Positions 1 through 17,554 of a DNA stretch of 20,765 nt are shown here, piece after piece. The notes beneath the pieces are model-generated. The model did not search any database. It was not told the origin of the DNA and worked only from the letters and a program-made list of their open reading frames with translations. The first letter of the stretch is position 1, and each line of letters opens with the position of its first letter. Where the stretch lies: the IMG/VR virus record IMGVR_UViG_2703718852_000001. One strand, 5' to 3'. This stretch comes from a virus (Duplodnaviria > Heunggongvirae > Uroviricota > Caudoviricetes). A program made the position numbers and the translations under genes.

Positions 1-19
1 CTATTTGATAAATATTAAA

Positions 20-1315
20 TTAATTTTTCATTGCTTCGTTATGGGGCATGGTTGGGGCAAACTCGCTTAACTGTGTATTTAACAAAGCTACCTGTGCATT
101 ATTGTTTTCAGACATCCATTTTCCGTATACCTGAAATACCATTTGCGCATCTGCATGGCCCATCTGGTTTGCTATAAATGCCGGGTTAGCACCAGCTGTC
201 AGCGACCAGCAGGCATAAGTATGTCTCGACTGATATGATTTTCGATGGCGGAGTCCGGCACGTTTTATCGCTGCGTCCCACATCTGCCTTATTGAGTCAA
301 CGGTAAAATGGTCACCATAATTTTTTACTCTCGCTGACACTTCAGGTTGAAAAACAAAGGTGCATTTTTGTTTTTCTGTTCTGCCATACTCTCTGAGGTG
401 AACATCAATGATATGCTCTTTGCTCAGTCTCGTTAATGTCATCTGACTCCGGAGAGCGTCGATTGCTGGCTTAATAAGATGAATGACCCGATTGGTTCCC
501 GCCTGTGTTTTTGGTACCGTGAAACGGTCTTTTGCTAAATTTCTCCTGATCATCATTGTTCCATTTTTCAGATCTATGTCCTCCCATCCAAGTGCACACA
601 GCTCACCAGGGCGAACTCCAGTATAAACAGAAACACACCATAAATTTTTTGCTTGCTGATTTCTGCACGCATCGATAAGACGGATAAATTCTTCCCGCGA
701 AAGAGGATCCGGAATGGTTCTTGATTCCTTTAATGGCGAGATCCCCTTAAACGGATTATCTGCCAGGTAACCGTTATCAACACCAAACTGGAACACGGCG
801 TTAAGATTTGTCATGTAATTATTTACAGTTACAGCCGATCTCCCTGGTTGTGTAACAATATAGTTACTTTTGGGGATCTGGTATCCAGTCAGTAACTCTT
901 TACGAACCTCCAGTAATTTTTCTTTATTAATCGATGAGGCAAGATTTTTTTCACCGATTATGCTCAGGATATTTTTGATGACGGCACGGTATGTGTTGAG
1001 TGATGTTTTGGCGACTTCAGTTTCTTTCAGTGCCAGAAATTTTTCAGCCAGTTCTTTTATGGTTAAATCTTGTCGGGCCTCACCAAATTTTTCCAGATTG
1101 CGTGAGGAGGGAAACTGTTTTGCATAGTCGAAAACACCAGTTTTTATTGCGTAACAAACAGAGGAGCGTAGTTCACCTGCAACGCGCCTGTTTTTTGCTG
1201 TGTCAGGAACCCCCAGATTTTCCCTGACTCTTACGTCTTTATAAACAAACCAGATACGTAATTTCCCTCCATGGTTTTCCACGCCTGTCGGATATTTCAT
1301 TTCAACTTCTCTCAT
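20..1315 (-). CDS. Phage tyrosine integrase (site-specific recombinase), 431 aa
   Basis: ORF track 20..1315 minus. C-terminal tyrosine-recombinase signature readable in the translation (..SRHTYACW.., ..QMGHAD.., ..VYGKW..) and an N-terminal arm-type domain (KYPTGVENHGGKLRIWF). Sits at the prophage edge, transcribed outward, as lambda int does. Alternative start at the second Met (coordinate 1300). Confidence 0.85.
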   Translation of the reverse strand: MREVEMKYPTGVENHGGKLRIWFVYKDVRVRENLGVPDTAKNRRVAGELRSSVCYAIKTGVFDYAKQFPSSRNLEKFGEARQDLTIKELAEKFLALKETEVAKTSLNTYRAVIKNILSIIGEKNLASSINKEKLLEVRKELLTGYQIPKSNYIVTQPGRSAVTVNNYMTNLNAVFQFGVDNGYLADNPFKGISPLKESRTIPDPLSREEFIRLIDACRNQQAKNLWCVSVYTGVRPGELCALGWEDIDLKNGTMMIRRNLAKDRFTVPKTQAGTNRVIHLIKPAIDALRSQMTLTRLSKEHIIDVHLREYGRTEKQKCTFVFQPEVSARVKNYGDHFTVDSIRQMWDAAIKRAGLRHRKSYQSRHTYACWSLTAGANPAFIANQMGHADAQMVFQVYGKWMSENNNAQVALLNTQLSEFAPTMPHNEAMKN

Positions 1316-1334
1316 TAGTTAGTGTGGCTTTTAG

Positions 1335-1619
1335 TCAAGTAAGATGACGTCTTGGTCTCGCTGATGCCTGGCGCTCAATCCAGCGATCAATTTCTTCCAG
1401 GTTGTAAAAGCATGGACTGTTATCCCATGGCATACCGTCATGAGCGACATGCTTATATTCCCTTCCTTCCATAAACGATTTTTCCCGGGCCTTTTTTAAC
1501 GTACCTTTTTTTATTCCTTTCAGCGCAATTAACTGCTCTTCGGATACGCGGTGGAAGTGCTGCTGATGTCGAATCCTAGCGTGATGACTATGAAGCGGGA
1601 AAAACTCCGGTCGAAGCAT
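1335..1619 (-). CDS. Putative excisionase-like small protein (xis position), 94 aa or shorter
   Basis: ORF ends 19 nt upstream of the int start on the same strand, the slot xis occupies in lambdoid phages. Contains ..EGREYKHV.., reminiscent of the lambda Xis DGREY wing. Function is inferred; the true start may be an internal Met. Confidence 0.35.
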   Translation of the reverse strand: MLRPEFFPLHSHHARIRHQQHFHRVSEEQLIALKGIKKGTLKKAREKSFMEGREYKHVAHDGMPWDNSPCFYNLEEIDRWIERQASARPRRHLT

Positions 1620-1669
1620 ATTGTGATGAGTGGGGCGATGAATGAGCGAGATTAATTATCAGGAAGGGC

Positions 1670-1929
1670 ATGAAACGGCGGGGCAAGCAAAACCAGTGGC
1701 ATGGCGATATCGCTACGTGAAAAAAGGCGTTACGGACTTTCAGGGGAAGTAGTGGTCTGGTGACTGGAAATATGTACCGAAAAAAGAGGATTGTAACGAC
1801 AGGCCGAACTATCAAATTCAGGCCTTATTCACTGCCTCACCAGTCCCAGTTACATCAGAAGAACTGGTTAAAGCTGTGCACTTTTATGAACAACTAAAAC
1901 GCGAAAATCCACCAACATCCGGCAACTAG
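1670..1929 (+). pseudogene. Decayed gene remnant (serial frameshifts, no usable start for the longest frame)
   Basis: Three consecutive short open frames: ATG 1670 to TGA 1720, ATG 1701 to TGA 1763, and a start-less 58-codon frame 1753..1929 ending ..EELVKAVHFYEQLKRENPPTSGN. Consistent with a frameshifted pseudogene. Confidence 0.2.
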
Positions 1930-2183
1930 ATTAATGGATTAACTATGTCGGTTAAACGACCAGCCAACTGAAAAAGCGGAAACCTGATTACAGGTTGCCA
2001 GATAAGGCAATGAGCTACCTGGCGCGGAACGGACTGATAAGTATGGGGAATGTTTTACGATGAACCTTTAGACTAAAGAGTTTGTAACGCTATGTAAGTG
2101 ATTTTTTCTGGTTTAGATATTTATATGTCCGGCCAAATTGAGGTGTGTTTAAATGTAATTGCACATTGATTGTAGGAGGAATA

Positions 2184-2363
2184 ATGAAAAACGCATTGCA
2201 GTTTTTGTTTGTTGCGTTCTGGTTGTTCGCATCATGTATGCCCATCATCTTCACAGCAAGGTATATGGAAAAAGTTGATGTTTTGATATTAATATTTGGA
2301 TATATAAATGCCCTTTTTTTAGGGGTGTTCATGGCGGTCATGTGCATTGAATACTGGCGGTAA
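2184..2363 (+). CDS. Small hydrophobic (predicted two-helix membrane) protein, 59 aa
   Basis: Internal ATG at 2184 of track ORF 2145..2363, preceded by AGGAGG at 2174-2179. Translation MKNALQFLFVAFWLFASCMPIIFTARYMEKVDVLILIFGYINALFLGVFMAVMCIEYWR has two hydrophobic stretches. Lies in an AT-rich segment. Confidence 0.45.
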   Translation: MKNALQFLFVAFWLFASCMPIIFTARYMEKVDVLILIFGYINALFLGVFMAVMCIEYWR

Positions 2364-2559
2364 ATACAGCGAACTCCATTGGTTTAGTTGGATATTTACT
2401 GTGCTGGACAAAAACGGTTTGCGGGGAAATCTTAGTTAAGTAGAATGACTGCGGGTGCTTGAGGCTATCTGCCTCGGGCATGGACACCAACGGCAGATAG
2501 AGAAAAGCCCCAGTTAACATTACGCGTCCTGCAAGACGCTTAACATTAATCTGAGGCCA

Positions 2560-4260
2560 ATTTCATGCTAGACACATGTAGGTTAGCCTCTTACGTGCCG
2601 AAAGGCACGGAGAAGCAGGCTATTGTTAACACCAAGCTGTAATGTCCCCTTTGAACCATTCTAAAATGTCCCCAGACAATTCTCTGGGGGATTTTTCATG
2701 ATCAAAGAGACTGTTACGATGAGTCATAAGGAACTCCACCGACTTCAGATTATTCAGGAACAAGCTGCGGCACGCATTGGCATTTCTATTCGGCAGGTTA
2801 AACGTCTGGTGCAACGGTATAGAAATGAAGGGCCTTCTGGTCTGGTTTCCCACCGACGTGGAAAGCGTCCTAATAATTCCTTTTCTACTGAATTCAGAGC
2901 AACAGTAATTTCACTCCTCAAAGGCCGTTACGCTGATTTTGGACCTACGTTTGCGTGCGAAAAATTGCGCGAGATACACGGTTTATCTTTATCCGTTGAA
3001 ACTCTCAGAAAGTGGATGATAGAAGAGGGGTTATGGCGTGAACGCCGTCGTAAAATTGCCCGTATATATCAACGCCGCATGCGACGACCATCTTACGGTG
3101 AACTGATCCAGATTGATGGCTCACCTCATGACTGGTTTGAAAATCGAGGCCCCAGATGTACACTGATCGTTTTCATTGATGATGCCACCAGTGCGTTGAT
3201 GGCGTTGCGTTTTGTGCCTGCTGAAACAACCCGGGCTTACATGGAAACCCTCCGGGGTTACCTTAATGATCATGGCGTACCGCTCGCTCTCTACTCTGAT
3301 AGACACAGTATATTCAGGGTAAATAACCCAGAGCGGGAAGGTGAGCTGACCCAGTTCACTCGTGCGATAAAGACACTGGGCATCGAGCCAATCCATGCCA
3401 ACAGCCCGCAGGCAAAAGGGCGGGTAGAGCGCGCCAATCAGACACTACAGGACAGGCTGGTCAAAGAAATGCGGCTTCAGAATATCAGTGATATTGAAAC
3501 AGCAAATGCATGGTTGCCGACCTTTATTGAAGCCTATAACAACCGGTTCGCTACGTCGCCTCGTACTACTGATAATGCTCATCTTGATGTGCACCATTCT
3601 GAAGAGGAACTGGGTTATATCTTCAGCCTACAGGCGAAGCGCGTTCTGTCTAAAAATCTCACTTTCCAGTACAAAAGCAGTGCGTTTCAGGTACGCAGTG
3701 AGGGCCGGGGATATCGACTTAGGCATTCGGTTGTTACTGTATGCGAGAACTTTGACGGTGAAATTAACGTTCTGTATGACGGGAAAGCGCTGGGCTGGGA
3801 AAAGTATGTTGATGGCCCGGAGCCTATACCACTGGATGATGAAAAGAGTGTCCATGAACGAGTGGATAATGCCCGTATTGATTTACGCTCAAAATACTAT
3901 GTTAAACCTAAAGCTGACCATCCCTGGCTTACGCGCCGAACGCAAAGTCATCAGCAAGTTAAGCCCCCGAAGTTACCTAAAAAGAAGCCTGATCCCGATA
4001 AAAAAGATTGAAACCAAGATCGATTCGGTTGAGTGCATATCCATTCATAGGGTAGATTCTTAAGTCGCGTTTCTGGTGTTCATTTTCGGGTGGTTTGTTA
4101 CTTGTTTTACCGGGGATATGCCAGAAACGCGCTGAGTCAGTCTGGGCGGTGCGCGTAATGAGGCGTTATGGTAAATAGCCTATGCTAATGTCCGCTAAGA
4201 GCAAGAAGCGGAAGTTGGCAGTTTTGTGGACTGTCCCCACAAAAGTGACTACAGAAATAG
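2560..4260 (+). mobile_element. Insertion sequence carrying the IS481-like transposase; ends not resolved
   Basis: Single transposase ORF with flanking non-coding DNA; I could not identify convincing terminal inverted repeats or a target duplication by eye. Bounds are approximate. Confidence 0.3.
2698..4011 (+). CDS. DDE transposase, IS481-like (retroviral-integrase-type catalytic core), 437 aa
   Basis: Track ORF 2698..4011. N-terminal HTH region (..ISIRQVKRLVQRYRNEGPSGLVSHRRGKRP..) followed by DDE-type motifs (..QIDGSPHDW.., ..LYSDRHSIF.., ..ANSPQAKGRVERANQTL..), as in IS481/IS3-type transposases. Confidence 0.85.
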   Translation: MIKETVTMSHKELHRLQIIQEQAAARIGISIRQVKRLVQRYRNEGPSGLVSHRRGKRPNNSFSTEFRATVISLLKGRYADFGPTFACEKLREIHGLSLSVETLRKWMIEEGLWRERRRKIARIYQRRMRRPSYGELIQIDGSPHDWFENRGPRCTLIVFIDDATSALMALRFVPAETTRAYMETLRGYLNDHGVPLALYSDRHSIFRVNNPEREGELTQFTRAIKTLGIEPIHANSPQAKGRVERANQTLQDRLVKEMRLQNISDIETANAWLPTFIEAYNNRFATSPRTTDNAHLDVHHSEEELGYIFSLQAKRVLSKNLTFQYKSSAFQVRSEGRGYRLRHSVVTVCENFDGEINVLYDGKALGWEKYVDGPEPIPLDDEKSVHERVDNARIDLRSKYYVKPKADHPWLTRRTQSHQQVKPPKLPKKKPDPDKKD

Positions 4261-4404
4261 TTGCAATTCATAATTGATCATGGGTTGTCAGTTAAACTCG
4301 TGGCGATTTAAATAGACTAATTGGGAGTGCGTCCATTACTTATATCTTGTAATGTTAACTATCAGAAATGATACAAAGATAATATGTCTTTAAAGAAAAG
4401 GCTG

Positions 4405-4433
4405 ATGGCGAAAAGTGGCCCGATGAGGGCCAC
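4405..4433 (-). terminator. Intrinsic terminator downstream of flxA
   Basis: Perfect hairpin GTGGCCC-GATGA-GGGCCAC (4415-4433), followed on the minus strand by UUUUCGCC, 15 nt past the flxA stop. Confidence 0.5.
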
Positions 4434-4447
4434 AATACGGCTGTCAC

Positions 4448-4780
4448 TTAGACGTAAATATCAATGGTGCCAGCGGTATTTGTATCGTCTTTTTTCTCTT
4501 CTTTTTTATCAGGCTGAACTGTCGCGTCTTCATTCTTTTTCTCTGCCTGCTGCCTTAACAACTGCTCCAGTTGAGCCCAGAGGCTTTCAATTTGCTTCTG
4601 TACCAATGCAGCCATTTCTTTTTTCTGCTGTGTCGTCATCCCCTCTTCCGATGAGATTTTCCCAAGCTTTTCAGTCAGCACCTGAATTTGTCTTGTGATT
4701 TTGGCTATTTCTGATGTTCCTTCCGGGGCGGAGTTGTTTGAAATAACGGTTGAGGTATTTCCCTGAATTGTGACAGACAT
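4448..4780 (-). CDS. flxA: FlxA, FliA-regulated protein, 110 aa
   Basis: Track ORF 4448..4780 minus (MSVTIQGNTSTVISNN..., acidic/Lys-rich C-terminus). AAGGAG SD upstream; sigma-28 consensus promoter immediately upstream; synteny with ydfV-relBE as in Qin. Confidence 0.85.
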   Translation of the reverse strand: MSVTIQGNTSTVISNNSAPEGTSEIAKITRQIQVLTEKLGKISSEEGMTTQQKKEMAALVQKQIESLWAQLEQLLRQQAEKKNEDATVQPDKKEEKKDDTNTAGTIDIYV

Positions 4781-4803
4781 AGATTTCTCCTTTTAAAAAA
4801 GCA

Positions 4804-4830
4804 CTATCGGCATGCACAAAAAAATCTTTA
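4804..4830 (-). promoter_or_regulatory. Sigma-28 (FliA) class 3 flagellar-type promoter for flxA
   Basis: Minus strand reads TAAAGATT-N11-GCCGATAG, against the sigma-28 consensus TAAAGTTT-N11-GCCGATAA, positioned about 25-50 nt upstream of the flxA ATG. Confidence 0.6.
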
Positions 4831-4982
4831 ATCGTATTTCTTGTGTCATTAATTGTTTGATGTTCAGATTGTTTTCCTCGCGGGCTGGCGCGCCTCAGAA
4901 AGTAAAGCTTGTTGACAGGGGTAAACGTTCGGCAATAATTTTCTGCCGCATGCGGGTGTTGCATAAAACGTGTTACGTTCCT

Positions 4983-5288
4983 TTATCGACAGGTCAGGTC
5001 ACCGCTCACCCGCCGACGAGAAAGCAACACTGACATGCTAAAGCAAAAAATAGATGAATAAGTTGAGTTGTGCATATGTAGCCTGACCGTCACAAAGTAT
5101 ATGGTGTCTGTACCAGTAAGATGATGGCCGGACTCTTTAAAAACGAGCTGACCTGCACAATACAGGATGGACTTAGCAATGGCTGCTCCTGGCACAAAGC
5201 GGACAGTGATCACCGTTCTTACGACTACTTTCTGACTTCCTTCGTGACTTGCCCTAAGCATGTTGTAGTGCGATACTTGTAATGACAT
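4983..5288 (-). CDS. ydfV: Hypothetical protein (ydfV-like ORF), 101 aa; coding status doubtful
   Basis: Track ORF 4983..5288 minus. Its start codon lies inside the relBE operator palindrome, the sequence is low-complexity, and I saw no convincing SD. Confidence 0.3.
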   Translation of the reverse strand: MSLQVSHYNMLRASHEGSQKVVVRTVITVRFVPGAAIAKSILYCAGQLVFKESGHHLTGTDTIYFVTVRLHMHNSTYSSIFCFSMSVLLSRRRVSGDLTCR

Positions 5289-5301
5289 TTGTAATTACAA
5301 G
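5249..5301 (+). promoter_or_regulatory. relBE promoter and operator (relO)
   Basis: TTGCCC (5249-5254), 17-nt spacer, GATACT (5272-5277), overlapping the palindromic operator CTTGTAATGACATTTGTAATTACAAG (5276-5301) immediately upstream of relB. Confidence 0.7.
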
Positions 5302-5312
5302 AGGTGTAAGAC

Positions 5313-5552
5313 ATGGGTAGCATTAACCTGCGTATTGACGATGAACTTAAAGCGCGTTCTTACGCCGCGCTTGAAAAAATGGGTGTAACTCCTTCTGAAG
5401 CGCTTCGTCTCATGCTCGAGTATATCGCTGACAATGAACGCTTGCCGTTCAAACAGACACTCCTGAGTGATGAAGATGCTGAACTTGTGGAGATAGTGAA
5501 AGAACGGCTTCGTAATCCTAAGCCAGTACGTGTGACGCTGGATGAACTCTGA
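5313..5552 (+). CDS. relB: RelB antitoxin, 79 aa
   Basis: Translation MGSINLRIDDELKARSYAALEKMGVTPSEALRLMLEYIADNERLPFKQTLLSDEDAELVEIVKERLRNPKPVRVTLDEL recognised as RelB; stop overlaps the relE start (TGATG). Confidence 0.95.
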   Translation: MGSINLRIDDELKARSYAALEKMGVTPSEALRLMLEYIADNERLPFKQTLLSDEDAELVEIVKERLRNPKPVRVTLDEL

Positions 5553-5839
5553 TGGCGTATTTTCTGGATTTTGACGAGCGGGCACTAAAGGAATGGCGAA
5601 AGCTGGGCTCGACGGTACGTGAACAGTTGAAAAAGAAGCTGGTTGAAGTACTTGAGTCACCCCGGATTGAAGCAAACAAGCTCCGTGGTATGCCTGATTG
5701 TTACAAGATTAAGCTCCGGTCTTCAGGCTATCGCCTTGTATACCAGGTTATAGACGAGAAAGTTGTCGTTTTCGTGATTTCTGTTGGGAAAAGAGAACGC
5801 TCGGAAGTATATAGCGAGGCGGTCAAACGCATTCTCTGA
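5552..5839 (+). CDS. relE: RelE mRNA-interferase toxin, 95 aa
   Basis: Translation MAYFLDFDERALKEWRKLGSTVREQLKKKLVEVLESPRIEANKLRGMPDCYKIKLRSSGYRLVYQVIDEKVVVFVISVGKRERSEVYSEAVKRIL recognised as RelE; translationally coupled to relB. Confidence 0.95.
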   Translation: MAYFLDFDERALKEWRKLGSTVREQLKKKLVEVLESPRIEANKLRGMPDCYKIKLRSSGYRLVYQVIDEKVVVFVISVGKRERSEVYSEAVKRIL

Positions 5840-5910
5840 ACCAAAGCATGACATCTCTGTTTCGCACCGAAGGTGACACTTCTGCTTTGCGTTGACAGGA
5901 GAAGCAGGCT

Positions 5911-6066
5911 ATGAAGCAGCAAAAGGCGATGTTAATCGCCCTGATCGTCATCTGTTTAACCGTCATAGTGACGGCACTGGTAACGAGGAAAGACCTCTGC
6001 GAGGTACGAATCCGAACCGGCCAGACGGAGGTCGCTGTCTTCACAGCTTACGAACCTGAGGAGTAA
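5911..6066 (+). CDS. hokD: HokD (RelF) Hok-family membrane toxin, 51 aa
   Basis: ATG 5911 to TAA 6064-6066, translation MKQQKAMLIALIVICLTVIVTALVTRKDLCEVRIRTGQTEVAVFTAYEPEE. Not in the ORF track (below 60 aa). Directly downstream of relE. Confidence 0.9.
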   Translation: MKQQKAMLIALIVICLTVIVTALVTRKDLCEVRIRTGQTEVAVFTAYEPEE

Positions 6067-6134
6067 GAGACCCGGCGGGGGAGAAATCCCTCGCCACCTC
6101 TGATGTGGCAGGCATCCTCAACGCACCCGCACTT

Positions 6135-6165
6135 AACCCGCTTCGGCGGGTTTTTGTTTTTATTT
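6135..6165 (+). terminator. Intrinsic terminator after hokD
   Basis: Hairpin CCCGC-TTCG-GCGGG (6137-6150) followed by TTTTTGTTTTTATTTT. Confidence 0.6.
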
Positions 6166-6282
6166 TCAACGCGTTTGAAGTTCTGGACGGTGCCGGAATA
6201 GAATCAAAAATACTTAAGTAGCGCGCAGGGATAAGAGGGATGGTCCCTTAAAGGGGAGAGCTAATTATCCGGAAGGATTCTG

Positions 6283-6534
6283 ATGATGAACATCGAAGAA
6301 CTGCGTAAAATTTTTTGTGAAGATGGCCTCTATGCTGTGTGCGTTGAAAATGGAAATCTTGTTAGTCATTACCGCATTATGTGTTTGCGAAAGAATGGGG
6401 CTGCGTTAATTAATTTTGTGGATGCTCGGGTCACGGACGGATTTATCTTGCGCGAAGGTGAGTTTGTCACTTCATTACAGGCATTGAAAGAGATCGGAAT
6501 AAAAGCTGGCTTTTCTGCTTTTTCAGGAGAATAA
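6283..6534 (+). CDS. rem: Rem, small prophage protein, 83 aa
   Basis: Track ORF 6283..6534 (MMNIEELRKIFCEDGLYAVCVENGNLVSHYRIM...); GGAAGGA SD; synteny between hokD and ydfU as in Qin. Confidence 0.8.
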   Translation: MMNIEELRKIFCEDGLYAVCVENGNLVSHYRIMCLRKNGAALINFVDARVTDGFILREGEFVTSLQALKEIGIKAGFSAFSGE

Positions 6535-6600
6535 ACTCATCTACAATCTTGCGCGGGGCTGAACTCCCGCTGAGTAACACCGTGCCACCGGAGAAAACCG

Positions 6601-6879
6601 ATGGCACGCAACGCAAAATATTACAATTCTGATAATTCGCCCGTTCTTGCCTGCACGCACGGGCGGTATTCTCACGCATTCAAGTCTGAATGGTTCCAGC
6701 ACCCTCCATGCACTGCAGAACAGGCCGAATGGCTGATTCATTCTTACCGCAGGCGCGGGTTCGAGGTTAAGAAAGCTCTCAGTCTCGACTATCGGCACTG
6801 GATAATCTCTGTCAGGCTGCCTTATTCCGAACGCCCACCACGTGCGTCCCGCACTTTCCAGCAACGGATCTGGAGGTAA
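6601..6879 (+). CDS. Hypothetical protein, 92 aa, translationally coupled to ydfU
   Basis: Track ORF 6601..6879 with GGAG SD at 6590-6593 (7-nt spacing). Its TAA stop (6877-6879) is 1 nt before the ydfU GTG start and the ydfU GGAGG SD lies within its last codons. Cys/His-containing (..ACTHGRYSHAFKSEWFQHPPCTAEQ..). Not a gene I recognise. Confidence 0.5.
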   Translation: MARNAKYYNSDNSPVLACTHGRYSHAFKSEWFQHPPCTAEQAEWLIHSYRRRGFEVKKALSLDYRHWIISVRLPYSERPPRASRTFQQRIWR

Positions 6880-6880
6880 C

Positions 6881-7930
6881 GTGCGGGTATTACTTAGACC
6901 TGTTCTGGTGCCTGAGCTTGGGCTGGTGGTCCTTAAGCCGGGCCGTGAATCCATACAGATATTTCATAATCCTCGAGTGCTGGTGGAACCGGAACCAAAA
7001 AGCATGCGTAATCTGCCATCCGGAGTCGTTCCTGCCGTTCGCCAGCCGCTGGCGGAAGACAAAACATTGCTGCCGTTTTTTAGTAACGAACGGGTGATTC
7101 GTGCTGCTGGCGGCGTTGGCGCATTGTCCGACTGGCTATTACGTCATGTTACATCCTGCCAGTGGCCTAATGGCGATTACCATCACACTGAAACAGTCAT
7201 TCACCGTTATGGTACCGGCGCAATGGTGTTGTGCTGGCACTGCGACAACCAACTGCGTGACCAGACATCGGAATCACTGGAGCTGCTTGCTCAACAAAAT
7301 CTGACAGCATGGGTGATTGACGTCATCCGTCACGCAATAAGCGGTACGCAGGAGCGGGAATTATCTTTGGCTGAATTATCCTGGTGGGCGGTCTGCAATC
7401 AGGTGGTGGATGCACTACCTGAGGCTGTATCGCGTCGTTCGCTGGGATTACCAGCGGAAAAAATCTGCTCGGTGTACCGCGAAAGCGACATCGTACCGGG
7501 AGAGCAGACCGCCACCAGCATATTGAAACAACGCACAAAAAATCTTGCACCGTTGCCTTACGCCCACCAGCAACAAAAATCACCACAGGAAAAGACGGTG
7601 GTAAGCATCACCGTTGATCCAGAGTCTCCGGAATCTTTCATGAAGCTGCCTAAACGTCGCCGCTGGGTTAAGGAGAAATACACACGTTGGGTTAAGACAC
7701 AGCCGTGTGCTTGCTGCGGTATGCCAGCCGACGATCCGCATCATCTGATTGGTCACGGGCAGGGCGGAATGGGAACAAAAGCACATGATCTCTTTGTGTT
7801 GCCTTTGTGCAGAAAGCATCACAACGAGCTGCATACGGATACAGTGGCATTTGAAGATAAGTATGGCTCCCAACTGGAGCTGATATTTCGTTTTATCGAT
7901 CGCGCGCTGACAATTGGCGTACTGGCGTAA
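6881..7930 (+). CDS. ydfU: YdfU, DUF968 family protein with C-terminal Cys/His (HNH-like) motif, 349 aa from GTG 6881
   Basis: Track ORF 6842..7930. GTG at 6881 preceded by GGAGG (6872-6876) gives 349 aa. C-terminus ..CACCGMPADDPHHLIGHGQGG...LCRKHHNELH.. Alternative start GTG 6842. Confidence 0.8.
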   Translation: MRVLLRPVLVPELGLVVLKPGRESIQIFHNPRVLVEPEPKSMRNLPSGVVPAVRQPLAEDKTLLPFFSNERVIRAAGGVGALSDWLLRHVTSCQWPNGDYHHTETVIHRYGTGAMVLCWHCDNQLRDQTSESLELLAQQNLTAWVIDVIRHAISGTQERELSLAELSWWAVCNQVVDALPEAVSRRSLGLPAEKICSVYRESDIVPGEQTATSILKQRTKNLAPLPYAHQQQKSPQEKTVVSITVDPESPESFMKLPKRRRWVKEKYTRWVKTQPCACCGMPADDPHHLIGHGQGGMGTKAHDLFVLPLCRKHHNELHTDTVAFEDKYGSQLELIFRFIDRALTIGVLA

Positions 7931-7943
7931 GTGGAGAACGAGC

Positions 7944-8696
7944 ATGAACCTTGAAGCCTTACCAAAATATTACTCCCCAAAATCTCCAAAATTGAGCGAT
8001 GACGCTCCAGCGACAGGCACCGGTTGTTTAACAATTACGGATGTAATGGCAGCGCAGGGGATGGTGCAGTCGAAAGCACCACTTGGGTTGGCCTTATTTC
8101 TGGCAAAAGTTGGTGTTCAGGACCCTCAGTTTGCGATTGAAGGCCTGCTAAATTACGCGATGGCACTGGATAACCCGACATTGAACAAATTGAGTGAAGA
8201 AATCCGGTTACAGATTATTCCTTACCTCGTGAGTTTTGCCTTTGCTGATTACTCCAGGTCTGCGGCAAGTAAGGCTCGCTGTGAGCATTGTTCAGGTACG
8301 GGATTTTATAATGTATTGCGCGAAGTGGTGAAACACTACAGACGCGGGGAATCTGTAATCAAGGAAGAATGGGTGAAGGAACTATGTCAGCATTGCCATG
8401 GTAAGGGCGAAGCCAGCACAGCGTGCAGAGGGTGTAAGGGTAAAGGGATTGTTCTGGATGAAAAAAGAACCCGGTTTCATGGCGTACCGGTATATAAGAT
8501 TTGTGGGCGTTGTAATGGAAACCGGTTTAGTCGTTTACCGACCACGCTGGCACGACGTCATGTCCAGAAGCTGGTACCAGACCTGACCGATTATCAGTGG
8601 TATAAGGGGTATGCGGACGTCATTGGTAAACTGGTAACAAAGTGCTGGCAGGAAGAAGCATACGCGGAAGCGCAATTGAGGAAGGTGACGAGATAA
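7944..8696 (+). CDS. quuQ: Late-gene antiterminator Q homolog, 250 aa
   Basis: Track ORF 7914..8696; ATG at 7944 with GGAG SD (7933-7936) gives 250 aa. Cys-rich zinc-finger-like region (..CEHCSGTG..CQHCHGKGE..CRGCKGKG..CGRCNGN..). Immediately followed by a strong promoter and a terminator (pR'/tR' arrangement). Confidence 0.85.
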   Translation: MNLEALPKYYSPKSPKLSDDAPATGTGCLTITDVMAAQGMVQSKAPLGLALFLAKVGVQDPQFAIEGLLNYAMALDNPTLNKLSEEIRLQIIPYLVSFAFADYSRSAASKARCEHCSGTGFYNVLREVVKHYRRGESVIKEEWVKELCQHCHGKGEASTACRGCKGKGIVLDEKRTRFHGVPVYKICGRCNGNRFSRLPTTLARRHVQKLVPDLTDYQWYKGYADVIGKLVTKCWQEEAYAEAQLRKVTR

Positions 8697-8728
8697 ATGA
8701 TTTTTGCTGAAGATGGCGACATGATGTT

Positions 8729-8757
8729 TGCATTTTTCAAAAAATATGGATAAAATT
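8729..8757 (+). promoter_or_regulatory. Candidate late promoter pR' (sigma-70)
   Basis: TTGCAT (8729-8734), 17-nt spacer, TAAAAT (8752-8757), 33 nt downstream of the Q stop. Confidence 0.55.
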
Positions 8758-8801
8758 TTTTCAACGATGGGCTTTGTATACCCGACGTTAAGAAAAAGTA
8801 G

Positions 8802-8830
8802 AAAACCCGCTGATGAGCGGGTTTTGTGCT
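8802..8830 (+). terminator. Candidate tR' terminator
   Basis: Hairpin AAAACCCGC-TGATGAG-CGGGTTTT followed by GTGCTTT, about 45-65 nt downstream of the predicted pR' start. Confidence 0.5.
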
Positions 8831-8973
8831 TTAAATGGGGCAATGGTAATGTTGAATCTCATCCCGGGACTCATGTCTGTTAACTTATTATTTAGCTGGT
8901 GACTTGGTTATTTGCCTGATGTTTAAAATGTTTTCTTCCAGTACAATGTCCCTAAACACAATGAGTCTGCTTA

Positions 8974-9063
8974 TTATATTATTAGCAGAGCTATTACGGC
9001 CAAAGTACAGCATAAGCTTTTAAAGCCAATCAACCAGTCATCAAGACAGACGGGGTTATTCAT
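8974..9063 (-). CDS. Candidate 29-aa hydrophobic peptide ORF downstream of cspF
   Basis: Minus-strand ATG at 9063 preceded by GGAGAG (plus 9069-9074) with 5-nt spacer; translation [29 protein letters not shown], then tandem TAA stops. Below the ORF-track size cut-off. Confidence 0.25.
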
Positions 9064-9117
9064 AAAAACTCTCCATGTGTGATCCGATGGGGCCTGAAAT
9101 TAAAGCTTTAATATAGC

Positions 9118-9330
9118 TCATGAAAGGTAAACATTGGCAGCTGAAGGGCCACGCAGACCATTTATCCGGCAAAATTCCACGCGTAATCCGGTGGTAATTT
9201 CTTCTGCATCGCGGAGATTGAGCGCTGAAACATGAAGCTGGACATCGATACGACCATCGGATGGGGTGATAAGACCCTTGCCGCTTTTGCCGTCAAAGGT
9301 TTTGACAATTCCTGTCATTTTACGGGACAA
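9118..9330 (-). CDS. cspF: Cold-shock protein family member CspF, 70 aa
   Basis: Translation [70 protein letters not shown] recognised as CspF. Confidence 0.95.
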
Positions 9331-9433
9331 AAAAATTCCTTAATACTGATAACTTGGCGCACTATACACACGTTCCTGAAGAAAGCTATAGTTTTTTGAT
9401 GGGGTTGAAGATGGCTGGATGTCTAAAATAAAC

Positions 9434-9463
9434 ATTGCTTCATATGTTCAACTATGCGTTAAT
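9434..9463 (+). promoter_or_regulatory. cspB promoter (cspA-like) preceding an approximately 160-nt 5' UTR
   Basis: TTGCTT (9434-9439), 18-nt spacer, TTAATG (9458-9463). The same ATGCGTTAATG block recurs upstream of cspI. UTR contains GCCGAAAGGC near the RBS, as in cspA. Confidence 0.45.
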
Positions 9464-9630
9464 GATTGCGTCGGTTTGAAGAACAGACGATATACGAAGT
9501 AGTTTACTAAAGCAGTTCTCATTTCAGGTGTTATTCACTTATTCCTTCTTTGAGTCTCTCCAATTAAGTACGAAGTCGTTTCTGTTATGCAAACCATTTA
9601 TGCCGAAAGGCTCAAGTTAAGGAATGTAGA

Positions 9631-9846
9631 ATGTCAAATAAAATGACTGGTTTAGTAAAATGGTTTAACGCTGATAAAGGTTTCGGCTTTATTTCTCCTG
9701 TTGATGGTAGTAAAGATGTGTTTGTGCATTTTTCTGCGATTCAGAATGATAATTATCGAACCTTATTTGAAGGTCAAAAGGTTACCTTCTCTATAGAGAG
9801 TGGTGCTAAAGGTCCTGCAGCAGCAAATGTCATCATTACTGATTAA
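9631..9846 (+). CDS. cspB: Cold-shock protein CspB, 71 aa
   Basis: Translation [71 protein letters not shown] with RNP1/RNP2 motifs (KGFGFI, VFVHF). Confidence 0.95.
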
Positions 9847-9957
9847 AATTCATCGCTCGTCTGTATACGATAACGAAGAAGGCTGATGCCTGAGTAGAGA
9901 TACGGACAGAGTAGTGAATATTGGATCTCTTTAATAAAAAGTAAGGAGGTCCAATAC

Positions 9958-9993
9958 ATGAAACAATGGCTAGCATATTTGGCAAAATCTTAA
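9958..9993 (+). CDS. Candidate 11-codon mini-ORF with near-perfect SD
   Basis: TAAGGAGGT (9942-9950), 7-nt spacer, ATG 9958; translation MKQWLAYLAKS, stop TAA 9991-9993. Between cspB and the downstream terminator. Confidence 0.3.
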   Translation: MKQWLAYLAKS

Positions 9994-10127
9994 TCAGGAA
10001 AAGTATGCTAACCATTGTGGTGAAGTGCAGGTTTGCTGCATGAATAGTTTTACAGCAGAAGCTAACTGCTGGCATGGCAAAACAAAGTGCGTAAGTGGAT
10101 GACTCCCACAAAAAGCACCACAATCTC

Positions 10128-10152
10128 AAACCCGCTCAGGCGGGTTTTTTAT
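10128..10152 (+). terminator. Hairpin terminator between convergent cspB and the zinc-ribbon gene
   Basis: CCCGC-TCAG-GCGGG followed by TTTTTT (10131-10150). Bidirectional function is plausible but only a short T-run follows on the other strand. Confidence 0.5.
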
Positions 10153-10209
10153 TATCTGCTTTAAATATATTATTAAAATATAAAAAATACTTGTTACTAA
10201 TAAAATCAA

Positions 10210-10380
10210 TCAGGCTACAGCTTTAAGATTTGTCTGGAATACTTTGTTGCAATGAGGGCAGATCAAAAGGGCACCTTTTTGTACTCTTGAAAAACTGTGT
10301 TCTGACTCTTGGGTGCAGTTTGGGCAGGAACATTTAACGAGATAATTACGGCGTGATTTTGAGTTTTTACGTTCTGACAT
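10210..10380 (-). CDS. ynfU: Small zinc-ribbon protein (CxCxxC...CxxC), 56 aa
   Basis: Internal ATG (10380) of track ORF 10210..10431, preceded by AGGAAA SD; translation MSERKNSKSRRNYLVKCSCPNCTQESEHSFSRVQKGALLICPHCNKVFQTNLKAVA. Symbol is from memory of the K-12 small-protein annotation and is not certain. Confidence 0.55.
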   Translation of the reverse strand: MSERKNSKSRRNYLVKCSCPNCTQESEHSFSRVQKGALLICPHCNKVFQTNLKAVA

Positions 10381-10599
10381 AGGCTTTTCCTGTATAAATG
10401 GCCGTATACAGTACACTAAATATGAAAACATTTCTCGTATTATTATTTTATATATGACTTTCTTTCAAAATAATTACCCACATTTTTAATGTGTATGTTT
10501 TTTTAGCGCCGTTGAGAACAACGTGTGCTGTCAAAACTACCCCGTAGACTCCGATCTTTTCAAACATATTGCACCATCCGTGTACATCGGGGTGAGGAT

Positions 10600-10815
10600 A
10601 TGAAATCAATGGATAAGTTAACAACAGGTGTTGCCTATGGCACATCGGCGGGTAATGCTGGTTTCTGGGCATTGCAGTTACTCGATAAAGTAACTCCGTC
10701 ACAGTGGGCTGCAATCGGTGTGCTGGGTAGCCTGGTTTTTGGCCTGCTGACGTATCTGACAAATCTTTATTTCAAGATTAAAGAAGACAGGCGTAAGGCT
10801 GCGAGAGGAGAGTAA
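10600..10815 (+). CDS. essQ: Holin (phage 21 S-type pinholin), 71 aa, dual-start motif
   Basis: ATG 10600 preceded by GGTGAGGA; translation [71 protein letters not shown] resembles the phage 21 pinholin. MKSM-DKL gives a holin/antiholin dual start. Track ORF extends upstream to 10525. Confidence 0.85.
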
Positions 10816-10819
10816 TCCA

Positions 10820-11127
10820 ATGACTCAAGACTATGAACTGGTTGTGAAAGGAGTCCGTAATTTTGAGAATAAAGTTACGGTAACTGTAGCCTTACAGGAC
10901 AAAGAACGCTTTGACGGTGAAATTTTTGACCTGGATGTCGCCATGGACCGTGTTGAAGGAGCTGCGCTGGAGTTTTATGAGGCAGCAGCCAGAAGGAGCG
11001 TCCGGCAAGTCTTCCTGGAAGTAGCAGAAAAATTGTCAGAAAAAGTTGAGTCTTATCTGCAGCATCAGTACTCCTTTAAGATTGAAAATCCTGCCAATAA
11101 GCACGAGCGTCCTCATCATAAATATCT

Positions 11128-11131
<4 letters not shown>
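10820..11131 (+). CDS. ydfR: YdfR, DUF1327-type prophage protein, 103 aa
   Basis: Track ORF 10820..11131, between holin and endolysin; start 5 nt after the essQ stop with GAGAGGAGAG SD. Confidence 0.75.
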
Positions 11132-12155
<1,024 letters not shown>

Positions 12156-12337
12156 GGTAATATTAAATCGGAACATTTACATCGCGGAATGTAAAATTTA
12201 AATAAAAAGGACTCTTCCATGAGCCAAAATTCCTGAAATCTTAAGGGTAAGATAAAAGGTCTTAATCAGAATGACACGTTTTATTAATAAATAAAGCTAT
12301 TCTTTCATTGCTGTGTTTTTCTTTACAAAAGTAATCC

Positions 12338-12367
12338 TTGCTATGGGTGGTTAATCATGCGTTAATG
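12338..12367 (+). promoter_or_regulatory. cspI promoter preceding an approximately 145-nt 5' UTR
   Basis: TTGCTA (12338-12343), 18-nt spacer, TTAATG (12362-12367); shares the ATGCGTTAATG block with the cspB promoter. Confidence 0.45.
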
Positions 12368-12517
12368 GTGTTCTGGTTTGTTACAAATTTATCTGAAGCA
12401 GTCATTGTTATAATTTTATTATTTGTACCTCTTGAGATTTCCTTGTTGGTTTTTCTCTCTGATATTTTTTTTCGGACCATTCTGCCCAAGGGCTAATTTC
12501 TTCAAAAGGTAATAATT

Positions 12518-12730
12518 ATGTCTAACAAAATGACTGGTTTAGTGAAATGGTTTAACCCTGAAAAAGGTTTTGGTTTCATCACGCCGAAAGATGGCAGCAA
12601 AGATGTGTTTGTCCATTTCTCAGCAATTCAGAGCAACGATTTCAAAACATTAACTGAGAATCAGGAAGTTGAATTTGGTATTGAGAACGGACCTAAAGGT
12701 CCTGCCGCTGTTCATGTAGTGGCGCTTTGA
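12518..12730 (+). CDS. cspI: Cold-shock protein CspI, 70 aa
   Basis: Translation [70 protein letters not shown] recognised as CspI. Confidence 0.95.
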
Positions 12731-12929
12731 GGTAGACAATATTACAAACCATATTCACTTTAGATGCCCGTGTTGTCATGGTTCCCAGTATAGAACATCA
12801 TCTTTTGATGTTTCTGACATGAATCCTTTCGGGGCAAAATGTATCTTTTGTAAATCAATGATGATTACATTTGATAATATTTCACAATACTTAAATGCCA
12901 GCCGTCTGTCGTTGGATTTAAAAAAGTGA
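12720..12929 (+). pseudogene. Start-less zinc-ribbon ORF, paralog of the 10210-10380 protein; probably frameshifted
   Basis: Open frame ..HIHFRCPCCHGSQYRTSSFDVSDMNPFGAKCIFCKSMMITFDNISQYLNASRLSLDLKK ending TGA 12927-12929. No ATG/GTG/TTG precedes the first Cys pair. An ATG at 12764 is out of frame by 1 nt at a CCC run. The CxC(x)C...CxxC spacing aligns with the 10210-10380 protein. Confidence 0.35.
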
Positions 12930-13076
12930 AAATGAAGGCTCCTTCGGGAGCTTTTTTGCTTGGTGTCTATTCGATGGATACTCACATACTACGGTAACAT
13001 CATGAAAAAAATCATAGTTTTTTTTAACTCTGAACCAGCAGTGGTAGTGCCAGCGATGACTGGAGTTAACACCATC

Positions 13077-13232
13077 ATGCGTGAATATCCAAATGGCGAA
13101 AAAACACACCTTACTGTAATGGCCGCAGGGTTTCCATCTCTGACCGGAGATCATAAAGTCATTTATGTAGCCGCGGATCGACATGTTACTTCAGAAGAAA
13201 TTCTGGAAGCAGCAATAAGGCTCTTGAGTTGA
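13077..13232 (+). CDS. ynfN: YnfN, small cold-shock-induced prophage protein, 51 aa
   Basis: Track ORF 12960..13232. The 51-aa form starts at ATG 13077 (MREYPNGEKTHLTVMAAGFPSLTGDHKVIYVAADRHVTSEEILEAAIRLLS). Alternative upstream starts at 13056 and 13002; none has a strong SD. Confidence 0.5.
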   Translation: MREYPNGEKTHLTVMAAGFPSLTGDHKVIYVAADRHVTSEEILEAAIRLLS

Positions 13233-13403
13233 TTTGATGCTATTGCATTGATAATTCAGGAAAATTCTCTTTGTCTGTTTGTGTAAAATTTAGACTATCG
13301 TATGTTGATTATTGCGATGTTTCATCTTATCTTTTACACGTTTGCACCATATAATCGACTTACTGTGTAACTGGAAAGTCATAACAGACTAAAAGAGGAA
13401 ATG

Positions 13404-13577
13404 ATGAATATTGAAAACTTAAAAACAAAAGCAGAAGCAGATATTTCTGAATATATAACAAAAAAAATTATTGAACTTAAGAAAAAGACCGGGAAAGAAG
13501 TTACCAGTATTCAGTTTACCGCACGGGAAAAAATGACGGGTCTTGAAAGCTATGATGTCAAGATTAATTTAATCTGA
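13404..13577 (+). CDS. gnsB: GnsA/GnsB family protein, 57 aa
   Basis: ATG 13404 (SD GAGGA at 13394-13398) to TGA 13575-13577; translation MNIENLKTKAEADISEYITKKIIELKKKTGKEVTSIQFTAREKMTGLESYDVKINLI. Below the ORF-track cut-off. Confidence 0.75.
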   Translation: MNIENLKTKAEADISEYITKKIIELKKKTGKEVTSIQFTAREKMTGLESYDVKINLI

Positions 13578-13596
13578 TGTATTCAATAATAAAATT

Positions 13597-13628
13597 TATC
13601 CATAAACCTCGTTTTTACGGGGTTTTGT
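13597..13628 (+). terminator. Probable terminator after gnsB
   Basis: Imperfect hairpin CCTCGT-TTTT-ACGGGG followed by TTTTGTTA. Confidence 0.35.
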
Positions 13629-13728
13629 TATATTTGAATGGTTCCGAATATCTAAATCACAATTGTTGATGGTTTTTATTAAACCAATGCAGTCCGGCTC
13701 AGGAGTGAGAGAAGCCGGACGTTATGGT

Positions 13729-14139
13729 TTAGCGTGGTAAGATCTGTGTAGTTTTCTGGATGCTTTCAGTAAATAGTAATGAATTATCAAAGGTATAGTA
13801 ATATCTTTTTTGTTCGTGGATATTTGTAACCCACCGAAAAACTCCTGCTTTAGCAAGGTTTCTTCTGTATTCCTGAAATGTGATCTCTCTGGATTTCAGC
13901 TTATTAGAGGTCGTTTCTATAAGATGCCTATCCTTTGAAAATTTGACAGACACAATGTTTTTTAGGCCCTTTAATAACACTGTATTATCATTTTTTAATA
14001 CAATATGAACATTCTCTGTGGCTAAATAGTAAATGTAATGTGAGACATTGTGACGTTTTAGCTCAGAATAAAACCATTGATAGTTTAAATCGTTTCGAAC
14101 TTTATCAAATATTTGTTTAAAAATGACTACCTGATCCAT
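13729..14139 (-). CDS. ydfO: YdfO, DUF1398 family protein, 136 aa
   Basis: Track ORF 13729..14154; internal ATG 14139 preceded by GGAAGG SD gives 136 aa ([23 protein letters not shown]...). Hairpin GTCCGGCT...AGCCGGAC (13692-13720) just past the stop. Confidence 0.8.
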
Positions 14140-14196
14140 AGATAAACCTTCCATGTGATATGAGGGGGCGTAGTCTGCACGATTATCTAAATTGCT

Positions 14197-14430
14197 TCAA
14201 TCTGGTCTGACCTGTTTTCTGAGCAATTCAGTAATGTCACTCTTTTCTTTGTTTGCTTCAGAAGAAACTCTTTTTTCTGAGCACAGTCTCCGGCGGCAGG
14301 CTTCAATGACCCAGGCTGAGAAATTCCCGGACCCTTTTTGCTCAAGAGCGATGTTAATTTGTTCAATCATTTGGTTAGGAAAGCGGATGTTGCGGGTTGT
14401 TGTTCTGCGGGTTCTGTTCTTCGTTGACAT
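14197..14430 (-). CDS. ynfO: YnfO, small protein with ribbon-helix-helix-like N-terminal region, 77 aa
   Basis: Track ORF 14197..14430. ..TRNIRFPNQMIEQINIALEQKGSGNFSAWVIEACRRRL.. has a beta-strand/helix/helix pattern typical of Arc/CopG RHH DNA-binding proteins (inference). Confidence 0.7.
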   Translation of the reverse strand: MSTKNRTRRTTTRNIRFPNQMIEQINIALEQKGSGNFSAWVIEACRRRLCSEKRVSSEANKEKSDITELLRKQVRPD

Positions 14431-14559
14431 GAGGTTGCCCCGTATTCAGTGTCGCTGATTTGTATTGTCTGAAGTTGTTTTTACGTTAAGTTGATGCAGA
14501 TCAATTAATATGATACCTGCGTCATAATTGATTATTTGACGTGGTTTGATGGCGTAGAT

Positions 14560-14818
14560 GCACGTTGTGACATGCAGATGATAATTATTATCATTTTGCG
14601 GGTCCTTTCCGGCGATCCGACAGGTTACGGGGCGGCGACCTCGCGGGTTTTCGCTATTTATGAAAATTTTCCGGTTTAAGGCATTTCCGTTCTTCTTCGT
14701 CGTAACTTAATGTTTTTATTTAAAATACCCCCTGAAAAGAAAGGAAACGACAGGTGCTGAAAACGAGCTTTTGGGCCTCTGTCGTTTCCTTTCTCTGTTT
14801 TTGGCCGTGGAATGAACA

Positions 14819-14820
<2 letters not shown>
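14560..14820 (+). other. Lambda-type cos site (cosQ, cosN, cosB region)
   Basis: ..CCGACAGGTTACG GGGCGGCGACCT CGCGGGTTTTCGCTATTTATGAAAATTTTCCGGTTTAAGG.. matches my memory of the lambda genome ends: the 12-nt cohesive end GGGCGGCGACCT lies at 14630-14641, right-end sequence to its left and the left-end cosB region leading into the Nu1 start (ATGGAAGTCAAC at 14819) to its right. Confidence 0.8.
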
Positions 14821-15969
<1,149 letters not shown>

Positions 15970-15979
15970 GTTATACGAG

Positions 15980-16882: not shown

Positions 16883-17457
16883 TGGCATTCAGAATGAGTG
16901 AACAACCACGGACCATAAAAATTTATAATCTGCTGGCCGGAACTAATGAATTTATTGGTGAAGGTGATGCATATATTCCGCCTCATACAGGTCTGCCAGC
17001 AAACAGTACCGATATTGCACCGCCAGATATTCCGGCTGGCTTCGTGGCTGTTTTCAACAGTGATGAGTCATCGTGGCATCTCGTTGAAGATCATCGGGGT
17101 AAAACGGTTTATGACGTGGCTTCCGGCGACGCGTTATTTATTTCTGAACTCGGTCCGTTACCGGAAAATGTTACCTGGTTATCGCCGGAAGGGGAGTTTC
17201 AGAAGTGGAACGGCACAGCCTGGGTGAAGGATACGGAAGCAGAAAAACTGTTCCGGATCCGGGAGGCGGAAGAAACAAAAAACAACCTGATGCAGGTAGC
17301 CAGTGAGCATATTGCGCCGCTTCAGGATGCTGCAGATCTGGAAATTGCAACGGAGGAAGAAATCTCGTTGCTGGAAGCATGGAAAAAGTATCGGGTATTG
17401 CTGAACCGTGTTGATACGTCAACTGCACAGGATATTGAATGGCCAGCACTGCCGTAG
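16882..17457 (+). CDS. tfaQ: Tail fibre assembly protein Tfa, 191 aa
   Basis: Track ORF 16882..17457; ATGA overlap with the stf stop; Tfa-like sequence ([28 protein letters not shown]...). Confidence 0.9.
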
Positions 17458-17554
17458 GGTAAAACATATAAATTCTATAATTAGATGTATCTTTCCATTT
17501 ACGGCAAGGAAGGGGGCTTGGAAGACGTAAAGCATCTCACACCGAGATTATTTT

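Follow-up and report, generated by a model that had tools for sequence, protein, structure and literature searches.

In the present study, we analysed a window of 20,765 nucleotides (nt) from virus record IMGVR_UViG_2703718852_000001, which is a Qin-type cryptic prophage of Escherichia coli, and examined the interval between its excisionase gene (xis) and the nin-type region. We conclude, with a probability of about 0.87, that this interval is a deletion scar in a defective prophage, from which genes were lost stepwise by illegitimate recombination at very short homologies and independently of the mobile element in the interval. The short arrangement is derived and not ancestral, because 422 of 5,426 complete E. 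coli genomes keep the full stretch from xis to the nin region (PhiR42_1 positions 2300-10700, at least 80% in one place) and because the sequence blocks of the phage PhiR42_1 match the window on either side of the junction. To the right of the junction lies a transposon that carries the toxin-antitoxin genes relBE, and a first-pass annotation of this DNA had connected the deletion with it.

The junction between xis and the nin-type region

PhiR42_1 (PV340562.1, from ECOR13; record of 48.7 kb) is a full-length Qin-type genome and is collinear with window 1-13697 apart from one gap. Window 1-1547 corresponds to its positions 1046-2592 (100% identity) and window 1545-13697 to its positions 10414-22566 (99.98%). 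The 7,824 bp that are extra in PhiR42_1 have been annotated as the start of xis, exodeoxyribonuclease VIII (exoVIII), ydfD, the dicB region, ydfC, ydfB, ydfA, cI (dicA), Cro (dicC), cII, replication protein O, LygF and an S-adenosylmethionine-dependent methyltransferase. The nearest sequenced relative, LR-58-1, is identical across all 20,765 bases of the window except for 4,509 bp that are missing from the window at the junction; relative to SCU-118, 4,195 bp are missing. When window 1-9000 was compared by megablast with the 5,426 complete E. coli genomes, many perfect matches were obtained, always in two pieces with 3-4.5 kb extra between them. The synteny comparison with Qin-like prophages keeping dicA/dicC, which the first-pass annotation had proposed, was run with PhiR42_1 and K-12, and the short form proved to be the derived one. 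The deletion that it had suspected is supported: recombination, immunity and replication genes were removed, and the relatives are identical on both sides of a clean junction. The features on and around the junction are the following.

20-1300, minus strand: intact tyrosine integrase gene of the intQ type (PGAP coding sequence on the identical sequence in three relatives; 1-1179 is 99.9% identical to K-12 intQ)
1335-1547, minus strand: xis, 5'-truncated, with the first 13 codons lost and residues 14-83 of 83 remaining (tblastn with PhiR42_1 Xis, 1547-1338, 100% identity)
1545-1547, no strand: deletion junction with the 3-bp microhomology TAC (blastn block boundaries and junction sequences)
1548-2405, plus strand: remnant of the nin-type region, equal to PhiR42_1 10417-11274, which lies there 3' of O, LygF and the methyltransferase
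1642-2063: decayed small gene (PGAP pseudogene, "frameshifted; internal stop", on the identical sequence)
2090-2347, minus strand, and 2145/2184-2363, plus strand: overlapping candidate small open reading frames (ORFs) with no family match

The xis gene had been taken as present whole; only residues 14-83 are found, at 1338-1547, inside an ORF (1335-1619) that is a chimera across the deletion junction and puts 24 unrelated N-terminal residues before the Xis part. Pfam DUF1233 is matched in the truncated product at model positions 10-69 of 70. All four independent deletion junctions examined in the region carry a microhomology of 2-10 bp, namely TAC in the window, TA in SCU-118, CTCCGGxTAC in BR1220 and GGAGxCTA in K-12. 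Short microhomology at such junctions is the signature expected of illegitimate recombination.

The view that no immunity or replication module lies between xis and the nin-like region was supported by three kinds of search. Using the proteins of two related phages and of K-12 as tblastn queries, we found no homologue of dicA/cI, dicC/cro, cII, O, LygF, exoVIII, YdfD, YdfC, the methyltransferase or DicB anywhere in the window (matches up to E <= 10 were noise only); among Xis, exoVIII, repressor and replication proteins, the sole match was that of Xis residues 14-83 at 1547-1338. ORF scans of 1335-4698 with Pfam, NCBIfam and PHROGs returned only the excisionase domain, the transposase and unknown-function families for flxA and its neighbours. 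No repressor-type family and no ORF of the HTH_3 type was detected by these three collections among the ORFs of the interval, the small ones included, and DicF was not found in the window by Rfam.

The window begins 18 bp within the prophage end on the rspB side and runs through the ydfJ end, and its prophage part comprises about 19.5 kb. It occupies the Qin site from rspB to ydfJ and is collinear with the late and nin-type genes of K-12 Qin; the dicA/dicC immunity pair, the replication gene O and the early-left recombination operon of a Qin-type prophage are missing. Compared with K-12 MG1655, identity is 99.9% over 1-1179 (intQ), 3827-15325 and 15927-20765, about 17.5 kb in all. Opposite window 1180-3826, the content of K-12 differs and consists of IS2, a ydfE remnant, ydfD, dicB, dicF, ydfCBA, dicA, dicC and ydfX. 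Both K-12 Qin (b1544-b1579) and the window have flxA, ydfV, relBE, hokD, rem, ydfU, Q, the csp genes and the lysis cassette, and replication genes are missing from both alike. However, K-12 Qin keeps dicA, dicC, ydfABC, dicF, dicB and ydfD, whereas the window is without any dic region. Conversely, the integrase gene of K-12 is only an IS2-disrupted pseudogene, its xis is absent and its transposon is 5'-truncated, whereas in the window the integrase gene is intact, xis is mostly preserved, the transposon is complete and the sok/mok half of the hok locus is present.

Course and cause of the gene loss

In the full-length form of the PhiR42_1 type, the order from xis to nin would be exoVIII, ydfD, dicB, dicF, ydfC, ydfB, ydfA, dicA (cI-like), dicC (cro-like), a cII/YdaT-like gene, O, LygF and the methyltransferase. 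An LR-58-1-like ancestor would already have lost ydfC through the 5' part of cII; LR-58-1 lacks 2,018 bp of PhiR42_1 there. A second segment, reaching from the 3' part of O through the methyltransferase, would also have been gone from the same ancestor, beside an IS66-family remnant; in LR-58-1, a 232-bp end fragment of an IS66-family element replaces 1,528 bp of PhiR42_1 in this place. A further step would be the window-specific deletion of 4,509 bp, fusing xis codon 14 to the nin-type region at TAC, and what it took was the start of xis, exoVIII, ydfD, dicB, dicF, the cII'-O' remnant and the IS66 fragment. The transposon would be older than these losses and independent of them, and it is found unchanged in full-length phages. 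PhiR42_1, SCU-118 and LR-58-1 all have this insertion with both copies of its target duplication, and therefore the insertion predates the deletions.

Some observations weigh against this account. The order of the deletion events was deduced from three living relatives. The exact junction of the window occurs in none of the 5,426 complete E. coli genomes, in none of the GTDB species representatives and in none of the JGI metagenomes; since it is known from one record alone, it could also have arisen by an assembly error or a laboratory deletion. Furthermore, the right-hand breakpoints of LR-58-1, SCU-118 and the window cluster within 45 bp (PhiR42_1 positions 10370, 10404 and 10414), which hints at a local hot spot or at the footprint of a lost insertion sequence (IS).

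The first-pass annotation had attributed the loss of the immunity and replication genes to an adjacent deletion caused by the IS in the interval, which would now sit in their place. IS-mediated adjacent deletion would yield a loss of DNA beside the IS, as was proposed; an IS-type transposase gene is present in the interval, and the different deletion that K-12 has suffered in this region ends inside that gene, at window 3826/3827. The hallmark of the process is, however, an endpoint exactly at an IS terminus with one copy of the duplication gone, and this is missing in the window. The junction at 1545-1547 lies 1,076 bp left of the left end of the element at 2624, and both inverted repeats and the 15-bp target duplication, which such a deletion would destroy, are intact. 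In PhiR42_1, the same insertion at the identical site coexists with dicA, dicC, cII and O, and the K-12 endpoint lies at the GGAGxCTA microhomology inside the transposase gene and at no IS terminus. Nor does the IS sit where the module would be, since its place is in the hok locus of the nin region, downstream of the former position of the module. An IS-caused loss of this kind is thus very improbable. A different IS, since lost, is a better candidate, although we still consider it unlikely. An IS66-family insertion about 44 bp left of the right breakpoint would have been followed by successive deletions that removed the replication genes and finally the IS. The 232-bp fragment in LR-58-1 sits exactly where PhiR42_1 8842-10369 is missing and lies 44 bp from the right breakpoint of the window, a whole ISEc8 is found in the region in some strains, and three breakpoints fall within 45 bp. 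This would, however, explain no more than the earlier loss, from O through the methyltransferase. The junction of the window joins two non-IS sequences at TAC with no IS sequence left, and SCU-118, which is not a descendant of LR-58-1 because it keeps ydfCBA, has its breakpoint 34 bp away without IS sequence. An IS probably took part in the earlier loss of replication genes, and the window retains nothing of it.

The junction might also be non-biological. It could stem from mis-assembly or from a collapsed join of contigs, or the source record could contain an engineered deletion. It is unique across the collections searched, and its flanks are 100% identical to LR-58-1; but it lies off gene boundaries, its 3 bp of homology are too short to mislead an assembler, and natural deletions of the same type are common at the locus, so that an artefact appears improbable. 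Hardly credible is the idea that 1548-2623 is not a leftover but an alternative, unrecognised immunity module brought in by mosaic replacement. Measured against K-12 alone, this stretch roughly matches dicA-dicC-ydfX in position and size. PhiR42_1, however, has the same stretch 3' of O, LygF and the methyltransferase in addition to a normal dicA/dicC pair; the ORFs of the stretch have no helix-turn-helix or other family match, one of them is a pseudogene, and the last 218 bp are the hok/sok leader. A heteroimmune replacement of dicA/dicC, which K-12 alone had suggested for 1548-2623, was dropped after the comparison with PhiR42_1. We therefore retain stepwise loss by illegitimate recombination as the explanation of the interval.

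Within the leftover stretch, the decayed ORF remnant reported earlier is indeed present and corresponds to the PGAP pseudogene at 1642-2063. The small membrane protein gene reported beside it holds in part: overlapping small ORFs exist at 2090-2363, one of 85 amino acids (aa) and the other of 59-72 aa, and the latter resembles a two-helix membrane peptide, but neither has a match in Pfam, NCBIfam or PHROGs and PGAP annotates neither. Both opposite-strand candidates are preserved in the phage vB_EcoS-640R1 (640R1).

The transposon in the hok locus

The phage 640R1 is without the transposon, and window 1545-2623 and 5897-6161 are adjacent there with a 16-bp overlap. Since this empty site has a single copy of the target, window 2624-5897 is a simple insertion of 3,274 bp. 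The element had been placed with its end inside 1335-4447; in fact it extends from 2624 to 5897 and takes in flxA, ydfV, relB and relE. A right end inside that interval was also considered and rejected, as no inverted repeat was found near 4216, where some plasmid copies diverge. An end similarity, TGGTTGAC, in one plasmid locus (L006) turned out to be coincidental once the plasmid was read further. The element and its surroundings are arranged as follows.

2406-2623, plus strand: 5' regulatory half of the hok/sok locus (sok/mok region), cut off from the hok frame by the transposon
2609-2623, no strand: left target-site duplication, 15 bp, GGAGAAGCAGGCTAT, an exact repeat of 5898-5912 and present as a single copy in 640R1
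2624-5897, plus strand: cargo transposon of the ISEsa1 type (IS1202 family), 3,274 bp (insert relative to 640R1; inverted repeats)
2624-2651: left inverted repeat (IRL), beginning TGT, end TGTTAACACCAAGCTGTAATGTCCCCTT
2698-4011, plus strand: transposase gene, 437 aa (NCBIfam NF033594, Pfam HTH_32/HTH_29 and rve_3, BLASTP)
4448-4780, minus strand: flxA, cargo inside the element (PGAP on the identical sequence)
4983-5288, minus strand: ydfV, cargo, the last 20 codons of which belong to the conserved right-end module
5313-5552, plus strand: relB (PGAP), cargo adjoining the right inverted repeat (IRR) and directed outward towards hokD
5552-5839, plus strand: relE (PGAP), cargo adjoining IRR and directed outward towards hokD
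5870-5897: IRR, beginning TGT, complement of TGTCAACGCAAAGCAGAAGTGTCACCTT
5898-5912, no strand: right target-site duplication, GGAGAAGCAGGCTAT, from which hokD takes its Shine-Dalgarno sequence and the "AT" of its start codon
5911-6066, plus strand: hokD (relF) frame, the 3' half of the split hok locus (PGAP; contiguous with 2406-2623 in 640R1)
6135-6160, plus strand: predicted intrinsic terminator after hokD (terminator scan; RNA fold -12.8 kcal/mol)
7944-8696, plus strand: Q-type antiterminator gene (ydfT/quuQ; PGAP, mapped from a relative)

IRL and IRR agree at 21 of 28 positions, which is in keeping with the imperfect inverted repeats of about 22-28 bp of the IS1202 type, and the same ends occur in at least 20 loci. 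The element had been called IS481-like. However, its transposase reaches 456.4 bits with NF033594 (ISNCY_2) against a cut-off of 250, whereas NF033577 (IS481) gives 125.7 bits against a cut-off of 224 and Pfam LZ_Tnp_IS481 an E value of 0.075, and the name cannot be kept. In BLASTP with the plasmid ISEsa1-family transposase (WP_004196353.1-type), 437 of 437 aligned residues are identical apart from a 9-residue gap. The gap is an in-frame deletion (SINRHITQE) near codon 22, in the N-terminal helix-turn-helix region of the E. coli Qin copies, whereas the transposase is full length in the plasmid copies and in a chromosomal copy of Shigella flexneri SFBU0723. The Qin copy of the transposon may be immobile.

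The IS1202 family has been described to include "transporter IS" with additional genes, as well as members whose duplications measure 16-17 bp (PMC10132070), and ISEsa1 is listed as an element of 1,609 bp in which a target duplication was undetected (Microb Genom 2023, PMC10132070). The window unit agrees with this family in its transposase, apart from the 9-residue deletion, and in its imperfect inverted repeats of about 25 bp. In contrast to the listing of ISEsa1, it measures 3,274 bp and has an exact 15-bp duplication, which suggests that the right end of ISEsa1 in ISfinder and in the IS1202 paper may be mis-set. Moreover, the pdif/dif targeting described for the ISAjo2 group is not seen for the elements here, which lie mostly in start regions of hok-family genes.

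The element inserted at the ribosome-binding site and start codon of hokD. The sok/mok leader ends with the left copy of the duplication, and the right copy gives hokD back its Shine-Dalgarno sequence and ATG. The similarity of window 2406-2623 to hokW/mokW/sokW and other hok loci extends as far as position 2623, and Rfam finds sok (RF01794) at 2453-2624 with 104 bits over the full model. Thus, the leader is separated from the hok frame and its 3' terminator by 3,274 bp in the window, whereas the parts are contiguous in 640R1. RelB and RelE correspond to the K-12 pair; the identical sequence is annotated as WP_000534858.1 and WP_000323025.1, and the stretch is 99.9% identical to K-12. Two short K-12 genes could be traced to this region. 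K-12 "ydfW" (19175-19324 of the K-12 locus) equals the last 49 codons of the transposase (window 3862-4011), and K-12 ydfX (19347-19637 of the K-12 locus), a fusion made at the K-12 deletion junction, consists of approximately the first 93 codons of the cII/YdaT-like gene. Judged by sequence, both look like junction leftovers rather than genes.

ISEsa1-type elements as a group measure 3.3-12.8 kb; the relatives of the window unit span 4.3-12.8 kb, and nearly all of them have relBE beside the right end. Insertions at hok-family genes elsewhere include the following.

IncF plasmid hok: duplication GGAGAAGAAGGCCAT, element of 3,301 bp
IncI pndA: duplication TGGAGGGGCTATGAT, element of 3,301 bp
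Several other hok-family genes: various duplications of 13-15 bp, elements of 4.5-6.1 kb
hok of pRHBSTW-00012_2: duplication GGAGAAGAAGGCCAT, element of 12,843 bp (locus L092, 130-12972)

Three insertions lie outside hok genes; the targets are mostly hok-family start regions (hokD, plasmid hok, pndA), and a GGCA motif stands just 5' of the duplication at almost all sites. In 16 of the 16 elements with relBE that were examined, a distance of 58 nt separates relBE from the IRR end, and relBE points outward. The cargo varies from flxA and ydfV in Qin to nickel and chromate resistance on a plasmid, where the 12,843-bp element of pRHBSTW-00012_2 carries ncrABCY (nickel), chrBA (chromate) and hupE. 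The annotation of this plasmid shows only a short "ISEsa1", and this apparent short copy is the left arm of the 12,843-bp element. A cargo-free relative of 1,449 bp is present in Hahella sp. SMD15-11, where the transposase is 62% identical and 12 copies have exact 15-17-bp duplications; several of these copies adjoin the ends of other copies. On Enterobacter hormaechei p49589CZ_IncFII (locus 3188-3253), a relBE module and a transposase module follow one another, right end to left end, with a 15-bp spacer between them (IRR-GGAGAAGAAGGCCTG-IRL), an arrangement that resembles a head-to-tail tandem or a circle-junction-like form.

Taken as a family, we believe with high confidence that these are IS1202-type cargo transposons with the transposase module on the left, relBE at the right repeat, variable cargo between them, a duplication of about 15 bp and a preference for the ribosome-binding site and start codon of hok genes. 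It has been reported that plasmid-derived relBE integrated into hokD (PMC6379469). The available portions of this and a further source on relBE and hokD (PMC5120126) give no vehicle, that is, neither transposase, inverted repeats and 15-bp duplication nor the co-cargo flxA/ydfV and the other hok targets. Literature searches on PhiR42, on relBE with ISNCY and on hok-targeting transposons returned, in the accessible portions of the sources, nothing relevant beyond PMC10132070, PMC6379469 and PMC5120126. That the anatomy is both correct and so far unpublished we rate at slightly less than an even chance.

Co-transcription of relBE and hokD has been published (Gotfredsen and Gerdes 1998, as cited in PMC5120126). 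As in the relBEF operon, in which relB, relE and hokD run the same way and no terminator intervenes, the window has only the right inverted repeat between relBE and hokD. The terminator predicted after hokD is strong and of canonical form, with a 7-bp G+C-rich stem, AACCCGC...GCGGGUU, followed by UUUUUGUUUUU. Because it stands upstream of rem, ydfU and Q, the proposed read-through from the relBE promoter via hokD, rem and ydfU to Q is unlikely without antitermination. The promoter scan did not rise above its background in shuffled sequence (13 matches compared with 11.5); the best promoter-like match (4912-4939, plus strand; TTGACA, 16 nt, AATAAT, 11/12) lies between flxA and ydfV, directed towards relBE and antisense to ydfV. 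Further to the right, the sole stretch of the right half without a K-12 match is 15326-15926, between K-12 nohA and stfQ; close relatives have identical sequence there, for which the annotation gives terminase small subunit and tail protein fragments. The Rfam matches at 9470-9862, 12372-12757 and 17225-17423 are cspA thermoregulator leaders (cspB, cspI) and IS009 RNA, which are expected for Qin.

Meaning for the prophage and for relBE

The prophage has an intact integrase and is without the first 13 codons of xis and the xis promoter context, the early-left genes, the repressor pair, the early rightward promoter region and the replication genes. From this gene content, it would be beyond repression, induction, efficient excision or phage replication, and it should be fixed in the chromosome and non-inducible. 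Q and the lysis genes would no longer be fed by the early rightward promoter, the dicC/pR-side region being absent. The deletion adds a further strain-specific step, of an ordinary kind, to the decay of a well-known cryptic prophage. Its lesson is that a repressor missing beside an IS is no evidence of a loss caused by that IS.

The anatomy of the transposon is the only part of this work that might be new. In it, relBE, a much-studied toxin-antitoxin pair, travels as the right-end cargo of an IS1202-family transposon that has hit hok-family genes repeatedly, bringing them under relBE transcription. If this anatomy is true, the classical K-12 relBEF operon would be a transposon-target fusion. 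Furthermore, nickel and chromate resistance genes travel in the same vehicle on Enterobacter plasmids, and correct boundaries of the element therefore matter for the annotation of resistance plasmids.

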